Below, one piece after another: positions 7,850 through 63,456 of a DNA stretch of 64,000 bases (its first letter is position 1; each line of letters opens with the position of its first letter). The DNA is from a phage. Location of the stretch: assembly GCA_020241125.1 (NCBI GenBank), contig GCA_020241125.1_4708.1; one strand, written 5' to 3'. The position numbers were made by a program, and so were the translations under genes. The notes under the pieces were generated by a model that saw nothing but the letters and a program-made list of their open reading frames with translations, did not search any database and was not told the DNA's origin.

Positions 7850-9646
7850 TCAATCGATTATGTCGTGATCGTTAATTTCTACAATTTCTTCATCGAATCG
7901 ACCGACGTCTTTCTTCAAGCCTGCATTGGTTGCTGCAACGTCATTTGCAATTTGTGGGGTAATGATTAACCGACCGCGCTCATCGATAGGTGCGTACATA
8001 CTGAACTTCTGACGTCCGGTTGGTTCGGAGTGTGGAAGATTCAGATAGCTTGCACAGAACGGGATGGAACCACTAACCAAACGACTCTCGTCAGCCAATG
8101 CAGCACCGCCTGCGTTTTGGCTCTGGAGAACAACATGCGTGCTCACTTTGAACAGCATGCAATCACCTGGTGACTGAATCGATGTTGCCACTTTCTCACG
8201 TTTATCACGATTGCTCTGGATATTGAGAATCGCTTCCGTTGCAACTTGATTTCGCAACGCCTTCTGTACATCGCGATTGGTCATCTCTTTACGGTTGTTC
8301 TGTCGTTTACCACGTTCTGTGGTTTTAAGATGGAACCCCAGTTTAAAGATGCTCTTACGCACATCCTCCATGACATATTCCAACACCATCAATTCCTTAC
8401 CGAACATCGTCGTGGTATCAACACGACTCATTTCGATAGTGACATTGTCAATCAGATACGCCATAAATTCGTAGAAGTCGTCGCAAGGAATATTTTCCTG
8501 TTTGAACTTCTTCTGCTGAATCTCGTCAACGTAAAGATCGAGACTGTCGATGTGGTGATTTACATCACGTAACAAACGCGCATCCGCGTTGTTGTTATTA
8601 AAGATAATCAAACCGAGTAATGTACGCCAATGGTCTGGCGCATTCGCGAACTCCTCAACCGGATAGTCTTCCGGAAAACGATCGTAATAACGGTCGATGA
8701 GATACAAGAATGCACCGACAAGGCCAAGAACAATACGTTCCGTGCCTCCGCGTCTTACAGCAATTTGAATATCAGGATGTTTGTAACGTACAGCGCTAGC
8801 GCTACGGCTTTTACCGCTTTTGCTGATACTAAAGCCTTTAGGAATAACCCCCATGGTGCGATAGATTACCCATTGGTCACGCGGAAAATCGCGTTCAGCA
8901 AGGTTCCGTCCGGTTACGGCTTCGACACCTGCAAAACGTCGGAAACACTCACCCACCCCATACTTCGCAAAGAGATAGTGACCCAGTGTGGTTACGCTGG
9001 TGTGGTTGATGTTGTCACCGTTCACTTTACTTTGTTTAGTAAGATGGTAGATTTGCGACCAGGGTAACGACAGGTAATGACGATAATCGATACCGGTCGG
9101 TGTATCATTGCTCAGGAACTGATACGGTGTACGTTTAACCGTGATTTTGTCACGCGGAAGCATGATGAACGCCATGTCTTTCGTGTAACTGATTACCGGG
9201 TCAGCGAGCACTGCACTGAGAATGAAGTTCGCACCACGTAGACGCATTTTACCACCCTGACCTACCGCGGGTAATAGGAGAGGATGTCGGATAATGCAGT
9301 AGTCCTTTCCGGGTTCACGACGGTCACCTGATTCCATCGCGCCGTACCAGCGGAATTCTAGCATCACCATAAACACATCGGATGGCGCAAGGTCGAAGGT
9401 CAGCTTACCGCTATCCTTCCCTTTGGTTTTCTTTCCTCCGCTTAAGTAGTGGAACTGTTCGCGGGCCATACAGCGACGCAGGCCATGATACACCAGATCC
9501 TTAGGTAAACTATCTTTGCTGTTCCGCCAAAGACGATCAACATAGGACTCAACATCTTGCATCTTATCGACGACGATGTTGCGTGCTATCTTCTCGTTCA
9601 TCTTCGGTGCAAGCCCAGCGACAGCTTTGCAGAATCTAGGATCCAT
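7850..9646 (-). CDS. hypothetical protein (598 aa)
   Basis: ORF-track start is GTG at 9649; ATG at 9646 has AAGGAG 6 nt upstream. Confidence 0.8.
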   Translation of the reverse strand: MDPRFCKAVAGLAPKMNEKIARNIVVDKMQDVESYVDRLWRNSKDSLPKDLVYHGLRRCMAREQFHYLSGGKKTKGKDSGKLTFDLAPSDVFMVMLEFRWYGAMESGDRREPGKDYCIIRHPLLLPAVGQGGKMRLRGANFILSAVLADPVISYTKDMAFIMLPRDKITVKRTPYQFLSNDTPTGIDYRHYLSLPWSQIYHLTKQSKVNGDNINHTSVTTLGHYLFAKYGVGECFRRFAGVEAVTGRNLAERDFPRDQWVIYRTMGVIPKGFSISKSGKSRSASAVRYKHPDIQIAVRRGGTERIVLGLVGAFLYLIDRYYDRFPEDYPVEEFANAPDHWRTLLGLIIFNNNNADARLLRDVNHHIDSLDLYVDEIQQKKFKQENIPCDDFYEFMAYLIDNVTIEMSRVDTTTMFGKELMVLEYVMEDVRKSIFKLGFHLKTTERGKRQNNRKEMTNRDVQKALRNQVATEAILNIQSNRDKREKVATSIQSPGDCMLFKVSTHVVLQSQNAGGAALADESRLVSGSIPFCASYLNLPHSEPTGRQKFSMYAPIDERGRLIITPQIANDVAATNAGLKKDVGRFDEEIVEINDHDIID

Positions 9647-57387: not shown

Positions 57388-58014
57388 TTATGCGAAGCGA
57401 CGCATGTAACCTGCCAGATAGTTACGTGTATCGAAGTAAGCAATTTCAGGAATTGCGATATTAAGGTCGATAGCACGGATTTCAACCTGGCGACGGCTTT
57501 CATCATAGATCGCATCCATCAGACGCAGTACTGTCAGGAAAGCCATGCGGGTATGGTAGTCCAGCGGCATGTTATCGATGCCACGATACAGATAACGGTT
57601 TGCATTAAATGCTCCTTCGCTGTTATCTTTCCAGATCTTCAGAATATCAGCAAAGGCGGTGCGGAAAACCTCAGGATTATCCACATCCAGTAACGCACGG
57701 AAGGCAGACATTAAAGACCGCTGATGGCGGATCAACGACTGCGGTGTTTGCGGCATGGTCGGACCCATTTCTTCCGCATATTTCTGGAACGGGGCAACCA
57801 GGGTTGCGGCACGAGAAGCCACGATAGAAACAGCAGGCGATTCTTTCACCGCTGGTTTCGCAGGCTTTTCTTCAACAACGGTTTCCTTCTTCTCAACAGC
57901 GACCGTTTCCGGCTGTGCTACAACATCACCAACCGGAGCATCTGCAACGGTGGTTTCTACCGCAGTAATCTCCTCGTCCATTTTTGCAGAACGTTGGTCT
58001 TTATTCTTGCTCAT
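57388..58014 (-). CDS. hypothetical protein with Ala/Pro/Val/Glu-rich N-terminus (208 aa)
   Basis: ORF immediately downstream of beta-prime-like gene. Confidence 0.7.
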   Translation of the reverse strand: MSKNKDQRSAKMDEEITAVETTVADAPVGDVVAQPETVAVEKKETVVEEKPAKPAVKESPAVSIVASRAATLVAPFQKYAEEMGPTMPQTPQSLIRHQRSLMSAFRALLDVDNPEVFRTAFADILKIWKDNSEGAFNANRYLYRGIDNMPLDYHTRMAFLTVLRLMDAIYDESRRQVEIRAIDLNIAIPEIAYFDTRNYLAGYMRRFA

Positions 58015-58039: not shown

Positions 58040-59341
58040 TTAACTAATATAAAGTTCGGGATCGTAAGGCGCTAACGATACACTGGCGTTATGCATTGCT
58101 TTCATCATAGTGTTCATGAAAACGTTGTTTACACCGGTGATCTCTGCCCCGATCGCGTCTGGGGTTGGAGCCATCGCGTTACCGCAACAGGTAGCACAGT
58201 ATTCCAGTGGGCCTGCTTTACAACGTTGAGGATCACGTAACTTGATGGTCTGTCCTTCCAAGGAAGCAAGTAATTCAGCATCAATAAGTTTAAGCGCTGC
58301 GCCGTCGATCATGTAACGGCCGACAAGCAGCTTATCTTTGATATGATCGCGGTTTACCGTGAACAGAATATGTTCGTGGGTACCACAGTCGTCCATCGTG
58401 ATTTTAAGGTTCTGTGTCGCACGTTGTGATTCTTTCGCCGTCTGTCCCGCTAAAGCGGTCAGTGCGCCACGTGAGAACGAACCTGCACGTGCGCTGTTGT
58501 TGTACTCCGCCCAATGGTCGACACGCATCCCTTCAGCCAGGCTGTGTGTGATAACGTTACGTTTACCAGGGTCAACGAAGTCGGCTTCAACCCCCATCAT
58601 GATGTGCGTTTTCTTTCGAGTATTACCGAAACTCTTACCGGGGTTAATATAGAACCCTTCCGATTCATCACCCTTAAAGGATTCCTTATCCATTTTGGTC
58701 AGCGTGGCTTCGAGTTTGATCAGTTCTTCAGGCGTGAACTTACCTTCCTCTTGTAAGCGTGCTAACTCTTTATCGCGATAGGCAATAATATCATCATCGA
58801 CCGTTAACGCTTTATCACTCATTGATGGAACAATTAAACGGTTGATAGCGGTTAACGCACTAATATTGTTGGTGAATTTCTTCACTTCGCTTGCGTACAA
58901 CGGACCAATTGGACGTTCGTTAGGATCGGGTATTCCCTCTTCAGGATCGTCAGCGACGCGTGGCGCAATCAGTGACTCCAGTGTACCGCTGGTCAACCGT
59001 CCTGCCTGGTATTCAATCTGAATACCGAAAGCATCATAAAGGACGTACATATTGAACAACGCTTCACCGAAGGTTGTGGTGGTTGTATTCTTAACCGACG
59101 GTAGATCACCAGGTGCAAGCTCCAATGGCTCCCAGAAACTCAACAGGGGTTTTGTTGGCTCGGTTTCCCATTGGTGTTCTTCACCGTCGATGGTAACCGT
59201 AACGACGTTACCTTGACGACGTAATTTAGGCTGATACTTCTCAGCGCCGCCTTCCGTAAAAGCAAATGCGTCGTTAATCCATTCAAGATAACGGTAGTGC
59301 CCTTCACGCATCGCGTAAAGGAAATATTCACGAGGTGTCAT
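58040..59341 (-). CDS. multisubunit RNA polymerase beta-prime C-terminal-like subunit (433 aa)
   Basis: Exact DDCGTHE motif; segment GSFSRGALTALAGQTAKESQRATQ aligns to the beta-prime bridge helix region; CATCCG near C-terminus; no NADFDGD, so this is a split C-terminal piece. Confidence 0.75.
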   Translation of the reverse strand: MTPREYFLYAMREGHYRYLEWINDAFAFTEGGAEKYQPKLRRQGNVVTVTIDGEEHQWETEPTKPLLSFWEPLELAPGDLPSVKNTTTTTFGEALFNMYVLYDAFGIQIEYQAGRLTSGTLESLIAPRVADDPEEGIPDPNERPIGPLYASEVKKFTNNISALTAINRLIVPSMSDKALTVDDDIIAYRDKELARLQEEGKFTPEELIKLEATLTKMDKESFKGDESEGFYINPGKSFGNTRKKTHIMMGVEADFVDPGKRNVITHSLAEGMRVDHWAEYNNSARAGSFSRGALTALAGQTAKESQRATQNLKITMDDCGTHEHILFTVNRDHIKDKLLVGRYMIDGAALKLIDAELLASLEGQTIKLRDPQRCKAGPLEYCATCCGNAMAPTPDAIGAEITGVNNVFMNTMMKAMHNASVSLAPYDPELYIS

Positions 59342-59354
59342 GTAACAACTCCTT

Positions 59355-60233
59355 TTAAACCCGGGTCAGGTCACCGTGACATGAAACGAACTCTGATAAC
59401 GCTCGGGTTGCTTCTTTGGATTCTTCAGCCATCGGGAAGTTTGCGGTAATAAGTTCTCGTAAGACAGGGACGAGTTCATTATCTTCGAGATCGGAAGCTA
59501 AGGCGAATGCAATCAGTTCTTGGGTGTATGCATACGGTTGCTGACGTAATGCAGTAAGCTGATCCCGACACTGCGACATTAGCAGGTCCAGTGGAACCGC
59601 TATCGTACCCCCTTCATCAATATACTGGCTGAACACTGGTGGGAACGCATCGCTGATGACACGAATACGTCGACGAATATGATCCGGAATCTGGACGTTT
59701 TCTTCATCGACGACGTTTTCGCTATCTTTCTCCAGCTTCTTGGTCAGTACCTCTTGAATGCGTGGAAGTAAGCTTGAATGCACGAAACCGATTAATGGGG
59801 TTACGTTAACAGCATCAACGCCGTAAATATAATGCGCGCATTCCGCTAGCGCTTCAGCTGTGGTGTAGTCTTCATCTTCAACGATAGCGAGTAGAAAAGC
59901 GGTATCGTCGTGTGTTTCCAGGTCTAATAACGTAGACGCTAGCGCATGAAGATATTTCAGGCTATCCAGAGTTAGCTGCCCTTCGTTAATTCGGATCCCG
60001 AAGGCAAGCAATTGTTGTTTATAAAGTTCGATACATCCGTTTGTTAAAATGATGTCTAATTCGTTTAAATCGTATTGTTCCCCAGCACCTGACAACATCG
60101 TACTGCAGAACGTTTCCAGTTGTTCACATTTAAAATCTTGGTATAAACGATGTATGCAGTGCTGTAACAGCGTACGCCTTGTTTCAGGGATCTTACCTTC
60201 TAACAAAGCCAAGACGGAATCAATCATATCCAC
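59355..60233 (-). CDS. hypothetical protein (292 aa)
   Basis: ORF. Confidence 0.7.
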   Translation of the reverse strand: MDMIDSVLALLEGKIPETRRTLLQHCIHRLYQDFKCEQLETFCSTMLSGAGEQYDLNELDIILTNGCIELYKQQLLAFGIRINEGQLTLDSLKYLHALASTLLDLETHDDTAFLLAIVEDEDYTTAEALAECAHYIYGVDAVNVTPLIGFVHSSLLPRIQEVLTKKLEKDSENVVDEENVQIPDHIRRRIRVISDAFPPVFSQYIDEGGTIAVPLDLLMSQCRDQLTALRQQPYAYTQELIAFALASDLEDNELVPVLRELITANFPMAEESKEATRALSEFVSCHGDLTRV

Positions 60234-60323
60234 TCCGATGCGGTAAATGTCTACTAGCTCTCATAATCTATTGAAGAAACTACCAGCTTACGCCAACTTA
60301 GATTAATCAGGAGTAACCATCCC

Positions 60324-60797
60324 ATGCCAGTTTCATCCAAACCAAGAAAAAAATCCGTAGGAAACCCTAAAGCTCAGGAAACAACAGCAATTCGTTGGGA
60401 CGAGTTACGTGAACCTATCGAAAACTGCGAATTGTTATTAGGTACCCTGGGTGCAGCTATTTACCAAGCGACGCAACCCTGTCGTTTACGATTAACCCAA
60501 AACAAACGTGATGAGTTCGTTGCATTATCAACAAGCACGAATAAAGATCTGACCGAACTTCAAACCGAGTTGACGACGATCAAGAACTCCATCACGCCGA
60601 TGTACGGTAAAGAAGTTGATGAACAAAGTATTCTGTTACAGTACAACTACGGGATGTCGTTAATGAACATCCTGGAACGCGCATCCGATATTCTGCGTCC
60701 TGACGTTGCACGCCTAAGCCAGCTGCGTGTCGAAGGGATGGAGAACCAGATCCGATTCGCTAACAGTGTTAAATCTCAAGGAGCCACCGAAGCATGA
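60324..60797 (+). CDS. hypothetical protein (157 aa)
   Basis: ORF with AGGAG SD; 4-nt overlap with next gene. Confidence 0.65.
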   Translation: MPVSSKPRKKSVGNPKAQETTAIRWDELREPIENCELLLGTLGAAIYQATQPCRLRLTQNKRDEFVALSTSTNKDLTELQTELTTIKNSITPMYGKEVDEQSILLQYNYGMSLMNILERASDILRPDVARLSQLRVEGMENQIRFANSVKSQGATEA

Positions 60798-62458
60798 GCG
60801 AACAAGAAAAAGAAGTCGTGACGAATCAGGAAGCCGTTGAGCGTTCAGAGTCGTCCGTTGAAACAACGATTCCGGCAAGTTCCGAGCCTGTTGGTTCCAC
60901 ACAGCAGGAAAGTAAAGACGAAGTAGTGGCTCCAGAAGCAACCCGTGAAGAAGAACCATCACATCCACCGCTGGTCGATTTCTCGAAGGCAACGATACGT
61001 TTCCAATGCGAAGACATTCGTCCTAAGAGTCCGAAGAAAACAAAACGTCAGCCGTTGGTGTTACCGCTGTATTCTCCACGTGTGCAGACAACGTATTACC
61101 GGGAATACATCAACGAAGCAATGGATACCGTGCAAGCCATTGTCGCTCAACGCGGTAAACCGACAGACGAACAATTTGATAAATTCAGTAAAGCGGTGGT
61201 GCAATCGGTTGCTGATGGACAATATCATCCGCGTGGCCCAGCTCACGATCGCGCCTTGGAACGTAAGGGCAGTCAGTGGACTAACGTACCCGTAGACTCA
61301 TCGGGTGTTGGTCGCGTTATTCCTGGCATTCCACAACCGAACCATATCCCTGATGATGTCGAAGCGCCGCTGACAGGAACCGATGCGATCTATTTTGCCA
61401 TCCGTAATACGAAATCAGGTGCGCCTGCGGTAATGCCGTTATGGCATAGCGGTATTAAGCTGCAGTTTAATCCGCCGTCAAATGAACGTGTTGCAATTAT
61501 GCACGAACGTATTGCACGCGATAAAATCCTGGGTGGACGTGATAGTACCGGTTTCCTGTTTTCAGCAACCTCGATTATCACCATGAAGCACGCTATCGAA
61601 TTAGCATTAGAATGCTGCTACATGGCCAACGTACCGAACCTGGATATCCAGCGTTTGAAAGACATTATTCCGGTTACCGATGTTCCAGCGTTATTGCTGA
61701 ACGTGCTGGTAACCATGTACCCGTACGGATATCCTTACGTACAGACCTGCTATCAGAATCCAGAAACCTGCGACTATCGTGTTGAAGATACCGTAAGCTT
61801 TGCGAAACTCTATCAAGTTGACAACAGCGCGATAACCAAACGTATGCGACAGATCATGACCGAAGGTCCGGTCATGACGGATGAACTTTTGCGTGAGTAT
61901 GCAAACGAACTGGGTGAAACAAACTCCCGTACGCTGGATCTGTCCGACAACGGTTCTGTTATCATTGAACTTGAAGTACCGAAGATTTCACGTCAGATCG
62001 CCATGGGCGAACGCTGGTTAAGCGATACCCTGGAAGATCTGCGTGATATTCTATCGCGTCCGTCAATGACCGAAGAAGAGCGTGATCGTGTTATTCGTGA
62101 ACGTCAGTTCTATAGCTGGATGCGTCAGTATGATGCGTGGATCAAATCGATGCACGTGTCAGTAAACGGTACCATGCGTCGTGTAAGCGATGCAGATACG
62201 GCAACGGTATTAGCACAGCTGTCACGAGACAGCGACCTTCGTGAACGTTATATTGACGGGTTGATGCAATTCATCGGTGATTCGACGATTGCGCTCGCAG
62301 CGATGCCTGCCTGGAAATGTCCGAAATGTAATGCCGATATTGCTGACAATCTGCGTGACCAGAAATACTACGATCTGATTGCTTTGGATGTACCCCAGCT
62401 TTTTTTTACCCTAAACTCCGTCCAATCTCTTCAGGAGGGGATGGACGCGGTATTCTAA
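60794..62458 (+). CDS. hypothetical protein (554 aa) with C-terminal CPKC element
   Basis: ORF with GGAG SD. Confidence 0.75.
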   Translation: MSEQEKEVVTNQEAVERSESSVETTIPASSEPVGSTQQESKDEVVAPEATREEEPSHPPLVDFSKATIRFQCEDIRPKSPKKTKRQPLVLPLYSPRVQTTYYREYINEAMDTVQAIVAQRGKPTDEQFDKFSKAVVQSVADGQYHPRGPAHDRALERKGSQWTNVPVDSSGVGRVIPGIPQPNHIPDDVEAPLTGTDAIYFAIRNTKSGAPAVMPLWHSGIKLQFNPPSNERVAIMHERIARDKILGGRDSTGFLFSATSIITMKHAIELALECCYMANVPNLDIQRLKDIIPVTDVPALLLNVLVTMYPYGYPYVQTCYQNPETCDYRVEDTVSFAKLYQVDNSAITKRMRQIMTEGPVMTDELLREYANELGETNSRTLDLSDNGSVIIELEVPKISRQIAMGERWLSDTLEDLRDILSRPSMTEEERDRVIRERQFYSWMRQYDAWIKSMHVSVNGTMRRVSDADTATVLAQLSRDSDLRERYIDGLMQFIGDSTIALAAMPAWKCPKCNADIADNLRDQKYYDLIALDVPQLFFTLNSVQSLQEGMDAVF

Positions 62459-62550
62459 TCGATCCGCGATACGGGTTACATGACGGACAACTTGTTCGTA
62501 ATGATGAAAAAATCTGGGAATTGCTATTAGCCCGTAAAGGCGACGGTGGC

Positions 62551-62880
62551 ATGAAACTGAACATCGAAATGGGTATTGCGTACGATACCATGTTTGGCTT
62601 GTACGATCGTGTTAACGACTGGACGCCGTTGAAATGGGTTGCTCAGCATCCCGCTGAAGATCCCTGGGACAGATTGGGGATTAAACCCTTAATCGAAGAT
62701 TATGTCCGATTCGGTATTAAAGAGTTCATGACGCTGGATGCGTTTTTACAAGCACCGTATCCTTACGCGCAAACGGTACTCAAAATCGCACAAGACGAAC
62801 TGCGGAAACGTAGTGCGGTACTGGACGACGATGAGGACAAGTTACGACGAGAAGAAGAACGTTTACGAAACGGAAAATAA
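62551..62880 (+). CDS. hypothetical protein (109 aa)
   Basis: ORF-track start is TTG 62521; ATG 62551 chosen. Confidence 0.55.
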   Translation: MKLNIEMGIAYDTMFGLYDRVNDWTPLKWVAQHPAEDPWDRLGIKPLIEDYVRFGIKEFMTLDAFLQAPYPYAQTVLKIAQDELRKRSAVLDDDEDKLRREEERLRNGK

Positions 62881-62881
62881 A

Positions 62882-63391
62882 ATGGCGAGATTTACCAGTT
62901 TGATTGGGTTGGATATTTGGGAAACACCGGCTGACGTTCGGGTTATTCCTGTTAACACCGTCGGTGTGATGGGACGTGGTCTTGCCAAACAGGCAGCCGA
63001 TCGTGTACCCGGTCTTCTTGAAGCGTACCGTAAGCAATGTCAAGATGGGTTTAAGGTGGGCGAAGTCGTGTCGTATCAACACGGTGATAACGATCAACTC
63101 ACCTACGTGTTGTTTCCATCAAAATCGGATTGGCGTGAAAGAACACGACGCGAGTATATCGTTAACGGTTTACTGGCGTTAAAAGCATGGTTACTGGAGC
63201 TTCAGTTCGAAAGAGACGGCTTCTCATATCGGCGTCCGGCTGAACCGCTGATCGTTGCAATTCCTCCGGTTGGTTCTGGTTGCGGTAATATCGGTTACGG
63301 ACAATCCGAAACAATCCAGCCTCAGTGGGTACGCGCACAAATCAAACAGTATCTTGCCACCGTACCGAACGTTCATTTCTACTTGTTCTAA
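62882..63391 (+). CDS. macro-domain protein (ADP-ribose binding/processing fold, 169 aa)
   Basis: GLDIW...VRVIPVNTVGVMGRGLAKQAADRVPGLLE matches macro-domain N-terminal blocks (GDIT...VNAAN...GGGV); LIVAIPPVGSGCGNIGYGQ matches the second macro motif; starts 1 nt after upstream stop. Confidence 0.7.
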   Translation: MARFTSLIGLDIWETPADVRVIPVNTVGVMGRGLAKQAADRVPGLLEAYRKQCQDGFKVGEVVSYQHGDNDQLTYVLFPSKSDWRERTRREYIVNGLLALKAWLLELQFERDGFSYRRPAEPLIVAIPPVGSGCGNIGYGQSETIQPQWVRAQIKQYLATVPNVHFYLF

Positions 63392-63401
63392 CGCAACGGT
63401 A

Positions 63402-63447
63402 ACATAACCCTCTCCCTTCCCTGCTGGGTTGGGAGAGGGCTTATGCT
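63402..63447. terminator. GC-rich palindromic hairpin family member between convergent genes
   Basis: CCCTCTCCCTTCCCTGCTGGGTTGGGAGAGGG (core is reverse-complement orientation of the 19496 copy), flanked ACATAA / CTTATG. Confidence 0.5.
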
Positions 63448-63456
63448 GTTATGCTA

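Follow-up and report, generated by a model that had tools for sequence, protein, structure and literature searches.

The product of a phage gene at positions 62882..63391 (+ strand) is very probably an orthologue of AdfM, that is, an orphan, macrodomain-only copy of DarG2 that would counter DarT2 in a Goslar-like phage. The gene lies in the window analyzed here, a stretch of phage DNA of 64,000 nucleotides, and encodes a stand-alone DarG2-like macrodomain of 169 amino acids in which N25 and K81 are the predicted catalytic residues. Over positions 60324–63391 the window is 96.9% identical in nucleotide sequence to the E. coli jumbo phage Goslar, and the macro protein itself is 97% identical to Goslar gp83. 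It also aligns over its full length with PhiKZ gp104 (32% identity, E 1e-24), and a single macro match per genome was found in Goslar and likewise in PhiKZ.

The initial annotation had identified the 169-amino acid product from two sequence blocks diagnostic of macro domains. Both blocks, VIPVNTVGVMGRGLAKQ and VAIPPVGSGCGNIGYGQ, are exact matches in the 62882–63391 product, and profile and structure database searches agree with the assignment. When the protein was compared with Pfam, PF01661 scored 25.9 bits (gathering score, 22 bits), with residues 23–141 covering positions 3–113 of the 118 in the model. The DarG profiles gave E-values of 8.6e-23 (NCBIfam antitoxin_DarG) and 4e-22 (PADLOC DarG), and a sequence search of the PDB retrieved the macrodomain of Thermus aquaticus DarG (5m31, 5.4e-15), 5m3i (3.9e-11), 5m3e, and 7omu.

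Structure prediction, which had been proposed as a way to assign the macro subfamily, placed DarG macrodomains at the top. The AF2 model of the macro protein (pLDDT 86.5, pTM 0.85) has the three-layer α/β/α macro fold, and its first four Foldseek matches are the DarG macrodomains 5m3e, 5m31, 5m3i, and 7omu, followed by TARG1. The best of these, 5m3e (E 2e-13, TM 0.87 on the target), ranks above TARG1, Poa1p, and viral macrodomains. There were 150 PDB matches at E ≤ 0.001, and the best 50 of the 150 consist almost entirely of macrodomains and of designed proteins classed alongside them.

Both catalytic residues of DarG, an Asn and a Lys, are retained. N25 lies within IPVNTVGVMGRGLA, which pairs with VNTVGVMGKG of DarG and VNVVGVMGAG of PhiKZ gp104 (loop VN.VG.MG.G), whereas K81 lies within LFPSKSDW, which pairs with FPTKKHW of 5m31 and FPTKDNW of PhiKZ gp104 (motif FP[ST]K..W). 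The corresponding residues are N22 and K80 in T. aquaticus DarG and N23 and K78 in PhiKZ AdfM (PMC13309987). Neither N25, K81, nor the Gly-rich loops (G28–G33 and G131–G135) vary across 14 homologues. Judged by sequence and by modeled fold, the macro protein is a DarG2-type macrodomain whose closest relative is DarG.

Some annotations would instead place this protein among the housekeeping or metabolite macrodomains of the Poa1p/TARG1 type, acting as an ADP-ribose-1''-phosphate phosphatase, an O-acetyl-ADP-ribose deacetylase, or a protein de-ADP-ribosylase. The label of phrog_335 is "phosphatase," cd02901 Macro_Poa1p_like is given in the Goslar record, some homologues appear in databases as O-acetyl-ADP-ribose deacetylase, and both TARG1 and Poa1p are found among the fold matches of the model. 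These names, however, come from automatic annotation and not from tests, and, whether compared by sequence or by fold, the DarG macrodomains rank above TARG1 and Poa1p. Human TARG1/OARD1 (4j5s), a eukaryotic enzyme, belongs to the fold class that comes next after DarG (Foldseek E 2e-9), with an identity of only 15–18%; TARG1 is also able to remove DarT-made ADP-ribose from DNA (PMC8501950). In addition, PhiKZ gp104 acts on ADP-ribosyl-DNA and has a DarTG2-specific phenotype (PMC13309987). A housekeeping function is therefore very unlikely, and we favor the assignment to the DarG2 macrodomains.

As in the DarG2 proteins of DarTG2 systems (T. aquaticus and Mycobacterium tuberculosis; 5m31, 5m3e, 5m3i), the macro protein has a macrodomain fold, the loops that bind ADP-ribose, and both catalytic residues (Lys and Asn). 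In contrast to DarG2, it lacks the C-terminal, DarT-binding half, has no adjacent darT, and is phage-encoded and directed at the host system. The NCBIfam model of full-length DarG, NF048014, scored 81.1 bits and was covered only at positions 7–146 of 338, with the protein ending at residue 169; the score falls far below the equivalog cut-off of 250 bits because the macro half alone is present. No darT gene was detected beside the macro gene when the three upstream genes were searched in Pfam, NCBIfam, and PADLOC and the other neighbors in Pfam only.

The AdfM family (anti-DarT factor macro) was named by Morgan et al. (2026, Cell Rep; PMC13309987), with PhiKZ gp104, PhiPA3 gp108, Asesino gp217, and Goslar gp83 as members, the last of which is included in the AdfM alignment of that study. 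There, PhiKZ AdfM stripped DarT2-made ADP-ribose from an oligonucleotide in vitro, an activity that was weakened by the N23A substitution, and PhiKZ AdfM alone rescued E. coli from DarT2. Deletion of the AdfM gene lowered the titers of PhiKZ and PhiPA3 on DarTG2 hosts by 3–6 logs, and the AdfM proteins of PhiKZ, PhiPA3, and Asesino localized to the phage nucleus (PMC13309987). The protein analyzed here shares with this family its size, its macrodomain-only architecture, and the catalytic Asn and Lys, and its gene is likewise carried by the genome of a nucleus-forming jumbo phage.

The earlier suggestion that a phage macrodomain could reverse an ADP-ribosylating host defense of the DarT type is thus borne out by orthology, based on the PhiKZ gp104 and PhiPA3 gp108 experiments, the 97% match to Goslar gp83, and the DarG-type fold with its Asn and Lys. 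The idea is correct but not new, as the counter-defense role of the orthologues was published in 2026.

Host DarT2 uses NAD+ to place ADP-ribose on thymidine within TNTC-type motifs of single-stranded DNA. In the mechanism that we propose, the cleft of the AdfM macrodomain would bind this ADP-ribose, and the bond between base and ribose would be hydrolyzed through the Lys (K81) with the Asn (N25). Removal of the mark would leave phage DNA unmodified, allowing replication and, above all, genome packaging to proceed. The characterized AdfM orthologues are made late and enter the phage nucleus through the PicA import pathway (PMC13309987); there they clear the marks left by the little DarT2 that enters. 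By analogy with these orthologues, the same activity, nuclear localization, and protection from DarTG2 would be expected of this phage in E. coli. Avoidance of the DarT2 target motif was considered as another way for the phage to escape and was excluded: the window contains 2407 TNTC sites compared with ∼2106 expected, so these sites are abundant and not depleted, and there is therefore no escape by motif avoidance.

Goslar-clade macro proteins have two insertions relative to DarG, at approximately residues 108–121 and 136–146, and these two extra loops also set them apart within the AdfM family. The second is modeled with low confidence (pLDDT < 50 at residues 135–141), so that a shifted substrate preference is possible. 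We considered whether the macro protein reverses some other ADP-ribosylation, such as marks made by a phage-encoded ADP-ribosyltransferase (ART) or by host ARTs that target RNA or protein. Macrodomains are versatile, many jumbo phages encode ARTs (PMC9503650), and the Goslar-clade insertions could change specificity. Against this, the searches of the neighboring genes (the three upstream genes in Pfam, NCBIfam, and PADLOC; the others in Pfam) revealed neither an ART nor a DarT domain, and by every measure the nearest relatives are DNA-specific DarG2 enzymes, a class whose macrodomains are stated to counteract DNA ADP-ribosylation exclusively (PMC13309987). An alternative target of this kind is highly improbable, and the processing of phage-made ADP-ribosyl marks, which the initial annotation had raised as a second option, finds no support here. 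Removal of DarT2 marks from DNA is the activity that we consider best matched to this protein.

The start of the macro gene was assigned to ATG 62882. From the sequence comparisons, this start is taken as correct because the alignment with PhiKZ gp104 opens at M1 of both proteins (MARF and MAEF, respectively) and because the macro gene of a related locus (L004), whose product is 47% identical, has an in-frame stop two codons upstream of its ATG. Longer frames of 186 and 217 amino acids were rejected. The start given in the Goslar RefSeq record, which lies 51 nt upstream and overlaps gp082, is thus probably too far upstream and the annotated protein too long.

The macro gene closes a run of four + strand genes (60324–60797, 60794–62458, 62521 or 62551–62880, and 62882–63391), and this block is bordered by − strand genes on either side. 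The initial annotation had described the four as co-oriented and tightly coupled. Their co-orientation holds, as does tight coupling at two of the three junctions, where genes 1 and 2 overlap by 4 nt (ATGA) and genes 3 and 4 are separated by 1 nt; genes 2 and 3, however, are not tightly coupled, because the gap between them is 62 nt if the third gene starts at TTG 62521 or 92 nt if it starts at ATG 62551. The adfM gene is probably co-transcribed as the last cistron, behind three conserved chimallivirus genes whose role would be unrelated to it and possibly morphogenetic.

Both ends of this putative transcription unit have recognizable features. The 90 nt that separate the divergently oriented gp079 (−) and gp080 (+), at 60234..60323, are the presumed promoter region and would drive the + strand unit, and an AGGAG Shine–Dalgarno sequence precedes ATG 60324. 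A scan for σ70-like promoters found no site in 60234–60323, a result that is expected of a phage with its own RNA polymerases, to which such a scan is unsuited. At the other end, adfM (+) and gp084 (−) converge with 65 nt between them, and this space holds a strong symmetric hairpin (63393..63454), present on both strands. Its predicted RNA folding energy is −35.3 kcal/mol (z −6.1) on the + strand and −33.4 kcal/mol (z −6.9) on the − strand. The hairpin has no U-tract and was not flagged by a scan for U-tract terminators, and the Goslar annotation has a terminator at the same place. It is likely a bidirectional transcript end.

The first gene of the block, the Goslar gp080 homologue (60324..60797, +), encodes a helical protein of 157 amino acids. 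It occupies the position of PhiKZ gp78, a link that is positional only (BLASTP found no similarity between gp080 and PhiKZ gp78), and an iterative HMM search found members of the gp080 family at this position in 27 loci. The second, the Goslar gp081 homologue (60794..62458, +), encodes a 554-amino acid member of the PhiKZ gp77 family (phrog_4585) with a disordered N-terminal region of ∼85 residues and a C-terminal CPxC motif. In a comparison with BFVD, the structure of gp081 weakly resembled those of baseplate or hub-assembly proteins, a lead that has no sequence support, and this conserved chimallivirus gene possibly has a morphogenetic role.

The third gene, the Goslar gp082 homologue (62521..62880, +), has its stop 1 nt before the adfM ATG. 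Its start is probably TTG 62521 (119 amino acids) and not the annotated ATG 62551 (109 amino acids), since the corresponding codon of the L004 homologue is also a TTG start and the two proteins align in their N-terminal residues. The family phrog_12109 is matched by this protein and by PhiKZ gp76.4 alike. The link between gp082 and gp76.4 runs only through this common PHROG and the iterative HMM, as BLASTP found no match between the two. In 45 of 47 loci, the gene that directly follows the gp081 homologue belongs to the gp082 family. For all three upstream proteins, no credible family was found in Pfam, NCBIfam, or PADLOC, and gp080, gp081, and gp082 had no sequence matches in the PDB. The literature searched held no functional information on PhiKZ gp77 or gp78 or on Goslar gp80–82.

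On the − strand, the neighboring genes are the gp079 homologue (59355..60233; PhiKZ gp79, E 1e-6) and the gene for a β-subunit of the virion RNA polymerase (58040..59341; Goslar gp078, PhiKZ gp80; phrog_2962, E 5.8e-106). Together, gp078, gp079, and gp080–gp082 form a block that is conserved across chimalliviruses (loci L002–L048).

This conservation bears on a further proposal of the initial annotation, namely a possible functional partnership between the macro gene and the three genes upstream of it. If the four + strand genes were one functional module, gp080–gp082 might target or regulate the macrodomain or share an ADP-ribosylated substrate with it. The arrangement of the genes is compatible with a module: they are co-oriented, two of the junctions have a 4-nt overlap and a 1-nt gap, respectively, and the block ends in one strong hairpin. 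The order gp081–gp082–macro is also found in 15 of 43 IMG/VR loci, as well as in L004 and Burkholderia phage FLC9, at gp081 identities of only 22–31%, and the divergence of the macro protein is correlated with that of gp081 (Spearman 0.71). Such a correlation, however, would be expected if a conserved gene order were inherited vertically. In the other 28 of the 43 loci the cassette has no adjacent macro gene, and PhiKZ-like phages carry theirs ∼35 kb away, surrounded by unrelated genes. PhiKZ AdfM is sufficient by itself, whether in vitro or in E. coli, and deletion of the genes flanking it had no added phenotype (PMC13309987). Finally, the weak structural resemblances of gp081 include none to ADP-ribose-related folds. 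Based on these results, the proposed partnership is not upheld, and a four-gene functional module is improbable. What the comparison does show is that the macro gene directly follows a gp082-family gene in 17 loci of divergent chimalliviruses. Its position after gp082 is old and inherited and is not specific to Goslar; it is also a difference from PhiKZ, where adfM is not the last cistron after the gp77/gp76.4-family cassette.

Other phages encode factors with a related purpose, and AdfA of RB69 is reportedly one such anti-DarT factor. AdfN, an orphan DarG1-like NADAR protein of T4-like phages (PMC11825919), follows the same strategy as AdfM, in that an orphan antitoxin-like glycohydrolase removes DarT-made ADP-ribose from phage DNA. 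The NADAR fold is nevertheless unrelated to the macro fold, and AdfN counters DarTG1, not DarTG2. AdfB of Vibrio phage ICP1 is likewise a phage-encoded anti-DarT factor, but it is reported to neutralize DarT, probably by direct interaction (PMC11481870), and so inhibits the toxin, whereas AdfM erases the mark enzymatically.

These results give a firm functional label to a gene called "macro domain-containing protein" or "hypothetical" in GenBank, and they point to likely corrected starts for two annotated Goslar genes (the macro gene and gp082). The placement of adfM directly after the gp77/gp76.4-family cassette, next to virion RNA polymerase genes, in many distant chimalliviruses goes unmentioned in those parts of the published text that were searched and is a modest addition. 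It is conceivable, but unlikely, that the end of gp80–gp81–gp82 is the ancestral home of adfM and that the linkage was kept for a reason (for example, if the cassette acted at a packaging or assembly step blocked by DarT2 and AdfM were co-expressed with it), or that the extra loops of the Goslar clade widen the range of substrates beyond DarT2 marks. For the family as a whole, AdfM indicates that the phage nucleus is an incomplete shield, in that a DNA-modifying host toxin reaches the genome and an imported eraser is needed, a point that is already in print for the orthologues (PMC13309987). Because Goslar infects E. coli, for which DarTG2 systems and genetic tools exist, the import and specificity of AdfM could conveniently be studied with the Goslar-type enzyme.

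The region at 60324-63391 is 96.9% identical in nucleotide sequence, over its full length, to Escherichia phage vB_EcoM_Goslar, a jumbo phage with a 237-kb genome that has been grouped with the chimalliviruses, phages that build a phage nucleus (PMC13309987). Its four plus-strand ORFs correspond to Goslar gp080-gp083, and minus-strand genes flank this unit (gp070-gp079 upstream and gp084-gp090 downstream). On the upstream side are the virion RNA polymerase beta-subunit gene (58040-59341, minus strand) and, just past it, a homologue of Goslar gp77 (57388-58014, minus strand), which is a capsid decorator according to a 2026 preprint on Goslar virion structure (bioRxiv 10.64898/2026.04.21.720040); the Goslar neighborhood also holds tail-fiber genes.

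The last of the four ORFs (62882-63391, plus strand) encodes a 169-aa protein, and both macro-domain blocks quoted for it in the initial annotation are present exactly. This protein clears the Pfam Macro domain threshold (25.9 bits versus 22), and by sequence the more specific libraries agree on one macro subfamily, DarG (NCBIfam "antitoxin DarG," 8.6e-23; PADLOC DarG, 4e-22). In the PDB, its sequence matches were 5m31/5m3e (DarG macrodomain of Thermus aquaticus, 5.4e-15), 5m3i (that of Mycobacterium tuberculosis, 3.9e-11), and 7omu (a Thermosipho DarTG fusion). An AlphaFold2 model produced with 14 homologues as input is confident (pLDDT 86.5, pTM 0.85), with a single poorly modelled loop at residues 135-141. 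When this model was compared with the PDB by Foldseek, ranks 1-4 were the four DarG entries (5m3e, 5m31, 5m3i, and 7omu; for 5m3e, E 2e-13 and TM 0.87 on target), followed by TARG1 and then, lower, by Poa1p and alphavirus macrodomains. On the subfamily check suggested earlier, DarG macrodomains rank best in both sequence and fold.

The catalytic site, another check raised when the gene was first annotated, is conserved: the aligned homologues show no variation at N25, K81, or W84 or at the glycines of the two loops that bind ADP-ribose. The N25 motif, IPVNTVGVMGRG, aligns with VNTVGVMGKG of T. aquaticus DarG and VNVVGVMGAG of PhiKZ gp104, and the K81 motif, LFPSKSDW, aligns with their FPTKKHW and FPTKDNW, respectively; N25/K81 thus correspond to the residues numbered N22/K80 in DarG and N23/K78 in PhiKZ AdfM (PMC13309987).

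About half of chimalliviruses encode macrodomain proteins of the AdfM (anti-DarT factor macro) type, and the AdfM proteins of PhiKZ, PhiPA3, and Asesino localize to the phage nucleus, with PicA as the import route of PhiKZ gp104 (PMC13309987). Purified PhiKZ AdfM strips from an oligonucleotide the ADP-ribose placed by P. aeruginosa DarT2 on the second T of TNTC, N23A lowers this removal, and AdfM alone saves E. coli from DarT2 toxicity (PMC13309987). On DarTG2-expressing hosts, the titers of PhiKZ and PhiPA3 AdfM deletion mutants drop by up to three to six logs; the phage DNA of an AdfM mutant becomes ADP-ribosylated, and the chief block is in genome packaging (PMC13309987). The 169-aa protein is 97% identical to Goslar gp83 (YP_009820768.1), which is explicitly included in the AdfM alignment of Morgan et al. 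(PMC13309987). Judged by this identity, the product of 62882-63391 belongs to a published, experimentally characterized family. The counter-defense role initially proposed for it is supported by the match to this family, its activity being known from orthologues.

The best-supported mechanism is the orthology-based AdfM account, under which host DarT2 would ADP-ribosylate thymidines of single-stranded phage DNA, and the phage macrodomain would gather in the phage nucleus and hydrolyze the ADP-ribose mark via its DarG-type Lys/Asn site. DarG has a C-terminal DarT-binding half, whereas the 169-aa protein lacks it, covering only positions 7-146 of the 338-position NCBIfam DarG model (81 bits versus a 250-bit cut-off). 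No darT gene was found near the adfM orthologue when its neighbors were tested against Pfam (and the three upstream genes also against NCBIfam and PADLOC). The lack of both a DarT-binding half and a nearby darT argues that the protein would act by erasing the mark rather than by binding the toxin. By the same score and the lack of a nearby darT, membership in the DarG toxin-antitoxin equivalog was ruled out. The window is rich in TNTC sites (2407 observed on both strands versus ∼2106 expected under a second-order Markov model); thus, DarT2 is not evaded by motif avoidance.

The macro-gene start originally called (ATG 62882) is right, as the alignment with PhiKZ gp104 starts at residue 1 of both proteins; in L004, a locus of a relative with a 47% identical macro protein, there is an in-frame stop two codons 5' of the ATG. 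The Goslar RefSeq model of gp083, which starts 51 nt (17 codons) earlier and overlaps gp082 (Goslar NC_048170 92868, window 62831-62882), is probably an over-extension. Similarly, gp082 probably begins at the upstream TTG 62521 rather than at ATG 62551 (Goslar NC_048170 92588), because its homologue in L004 has a TTG start at the equivalent position and the two proteins align in their N-terminal residues.

Gene junctions were read from the sequence: gp080 and gp081 overlap by 4 nt, gp081 and gp082 are separated by 62 nt with the TTG start or 92 nt with the ATG start, and the gp082/adfM gap is 1 nt. adfM and gp084 converge on a 65-nt gap, in which a strong, symmetric hairpin at 63393-63454 (plus strand, -35.3 kcal/mol, z -6.1; minus strand, -33.4 kcal/mol, z -6.9) coincides with a terminator placed by the Goslar annotators. 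It is plausible that gp080-gp083 form a single transcription unit. The hairpin has no U-tract; very stable structures of this kind between convergent genes may be how the phage's own RNA polymerases typically terminate.

The three genes upstream of adfM have counterparts in PhiKZ. Goslar gp081 is in the PhiKZ gp77 family (phrog_4585), gp082 and PhiKZ gp76.4 share a PHROG (phrog_12109), and gp080 occupies the position of PhiKZ gp78, with no similarity detected between these two proteins. In PhiKZ, the gp78-gp77-gp76.4 cassette and the virion RNA polymerase genes (gp79-gp80) are divergent, exactly as gp080-gp082 and gp079-gp078 are here, whereas PhiKZ adfM (gp104) lies ∼35 kb away amid unrelated genes. 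Profile scans covered 43 IMG/VR loci with a gp081 homologue (22-31% identical to the query outside the Goslar clade). Of 47 loci overall, 45 have a gp082-family gene directly after the gp081 homologue, and most have a virion RNA polymerase beta-subunit gene on the opposite strand within a few kb of that homologue. A co-oriented DarG-like macro ORF lies directly 3' of the gp082-family gene in 15 of the 43 loci plus L004 and Burkholderia phage FLC9 (loci listed with this order: L005 (FLC9), L009, L010, L018, L020, L021, L025, L027, L030, L035, L036, L037, L041, and L004); in the other 28, the scan found no macro gene adjoining the cassette. Macro and gp081 pairwise divergences are correlated (Spearman 0.71; 153 pairs, not independent of one another), and their neighbor-joining trees recover the same clades.

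Because the adjacency recurs in chimalliviruses with such distant gp081 proteins and the divergences are correlated, the cassette-adfM linkage is ancient, older and wider than Goslar, and the PhiKZ-like phages are the exception. The pattern is consistent with a gene order that was inherited together, vertically, over a long time and was broken by losses and, in the PhiKZ group, by one or more relocations. This linkage does not argue for the functional partnership first proposed for the upstream genes, since most lineages carry the cassette without adfM, and PhiKZ AdfM suffices by itself in vitro and in E. coli (PMC13309987). In FLC9, tandem macro-like ORFs follow the cassette (8313-8810 and 8797-9279; gp362 and gp363, HMM E 8e-43 and 3e-16), which may reflect duplication or a second specificity.

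The upstream proteins gp080-gp082 had no credible family in Pfam, NCBIfam, or PADLOC and no relative among solved structures by sequence. Against predicted viral structures, gp081 matched chimallivirus homologues and an uncultured myovirus protein labelled "Baseplate protein" (3e-20) and, weakly and partially, proteins labelled "baseplate hub assembly protein, T4-like" (∼1e-3). The baseplate matches hint weakly at a role of gp081 in morphogenesis and are compatible with its neighborhood of virion RNA polymerase, gp77 capsid decorator, and tail-fiber genes; bioRxiv 10.64898/2026.04.21.720040 does not name gp80-gp83 among its modelled virion proteins. The first ∼85 residues of gp081 (1-85, window 60794-61050) are predicted to be disordered (pLDDT ∼30) and fall outside the matched region for most of the distant homologues, whose alignments begin only at query residue ∼100-210.

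Near-identical macro (99%) and gp081 (88%) proteins (homologues P0001 and P0017) are filed under assemblies of Salmonella enterica serovars Muenchen and Panama, the gp081 copy on a 180-kb contig; this points either to Salmonella as a host of Goslar-like phages or to co-assembly of phage DNA with the isolates. DarG-like macrodomains of 28-31% identity are found in SPN3US-like jumbo phages and also in much smaller, ∼75-kb Escherichia/Shigella phages (for example PGN6866, KM01, DE5, and ShigP1; genomes of ∼69-79 kb). Their presence in the small coliphages suggests that anti-DarT2 factors of the macro type also serve phages that build no nucleus.

The available text of PMC13309987 does not touch on synteny or on where adfM lies in the genome. 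The present analysis adds two probable start-codon corrections in Goslar RefSeq (gp082 and gp083) and a conserved location for adfM, directly after a gp77/gp76.4-family cassette.
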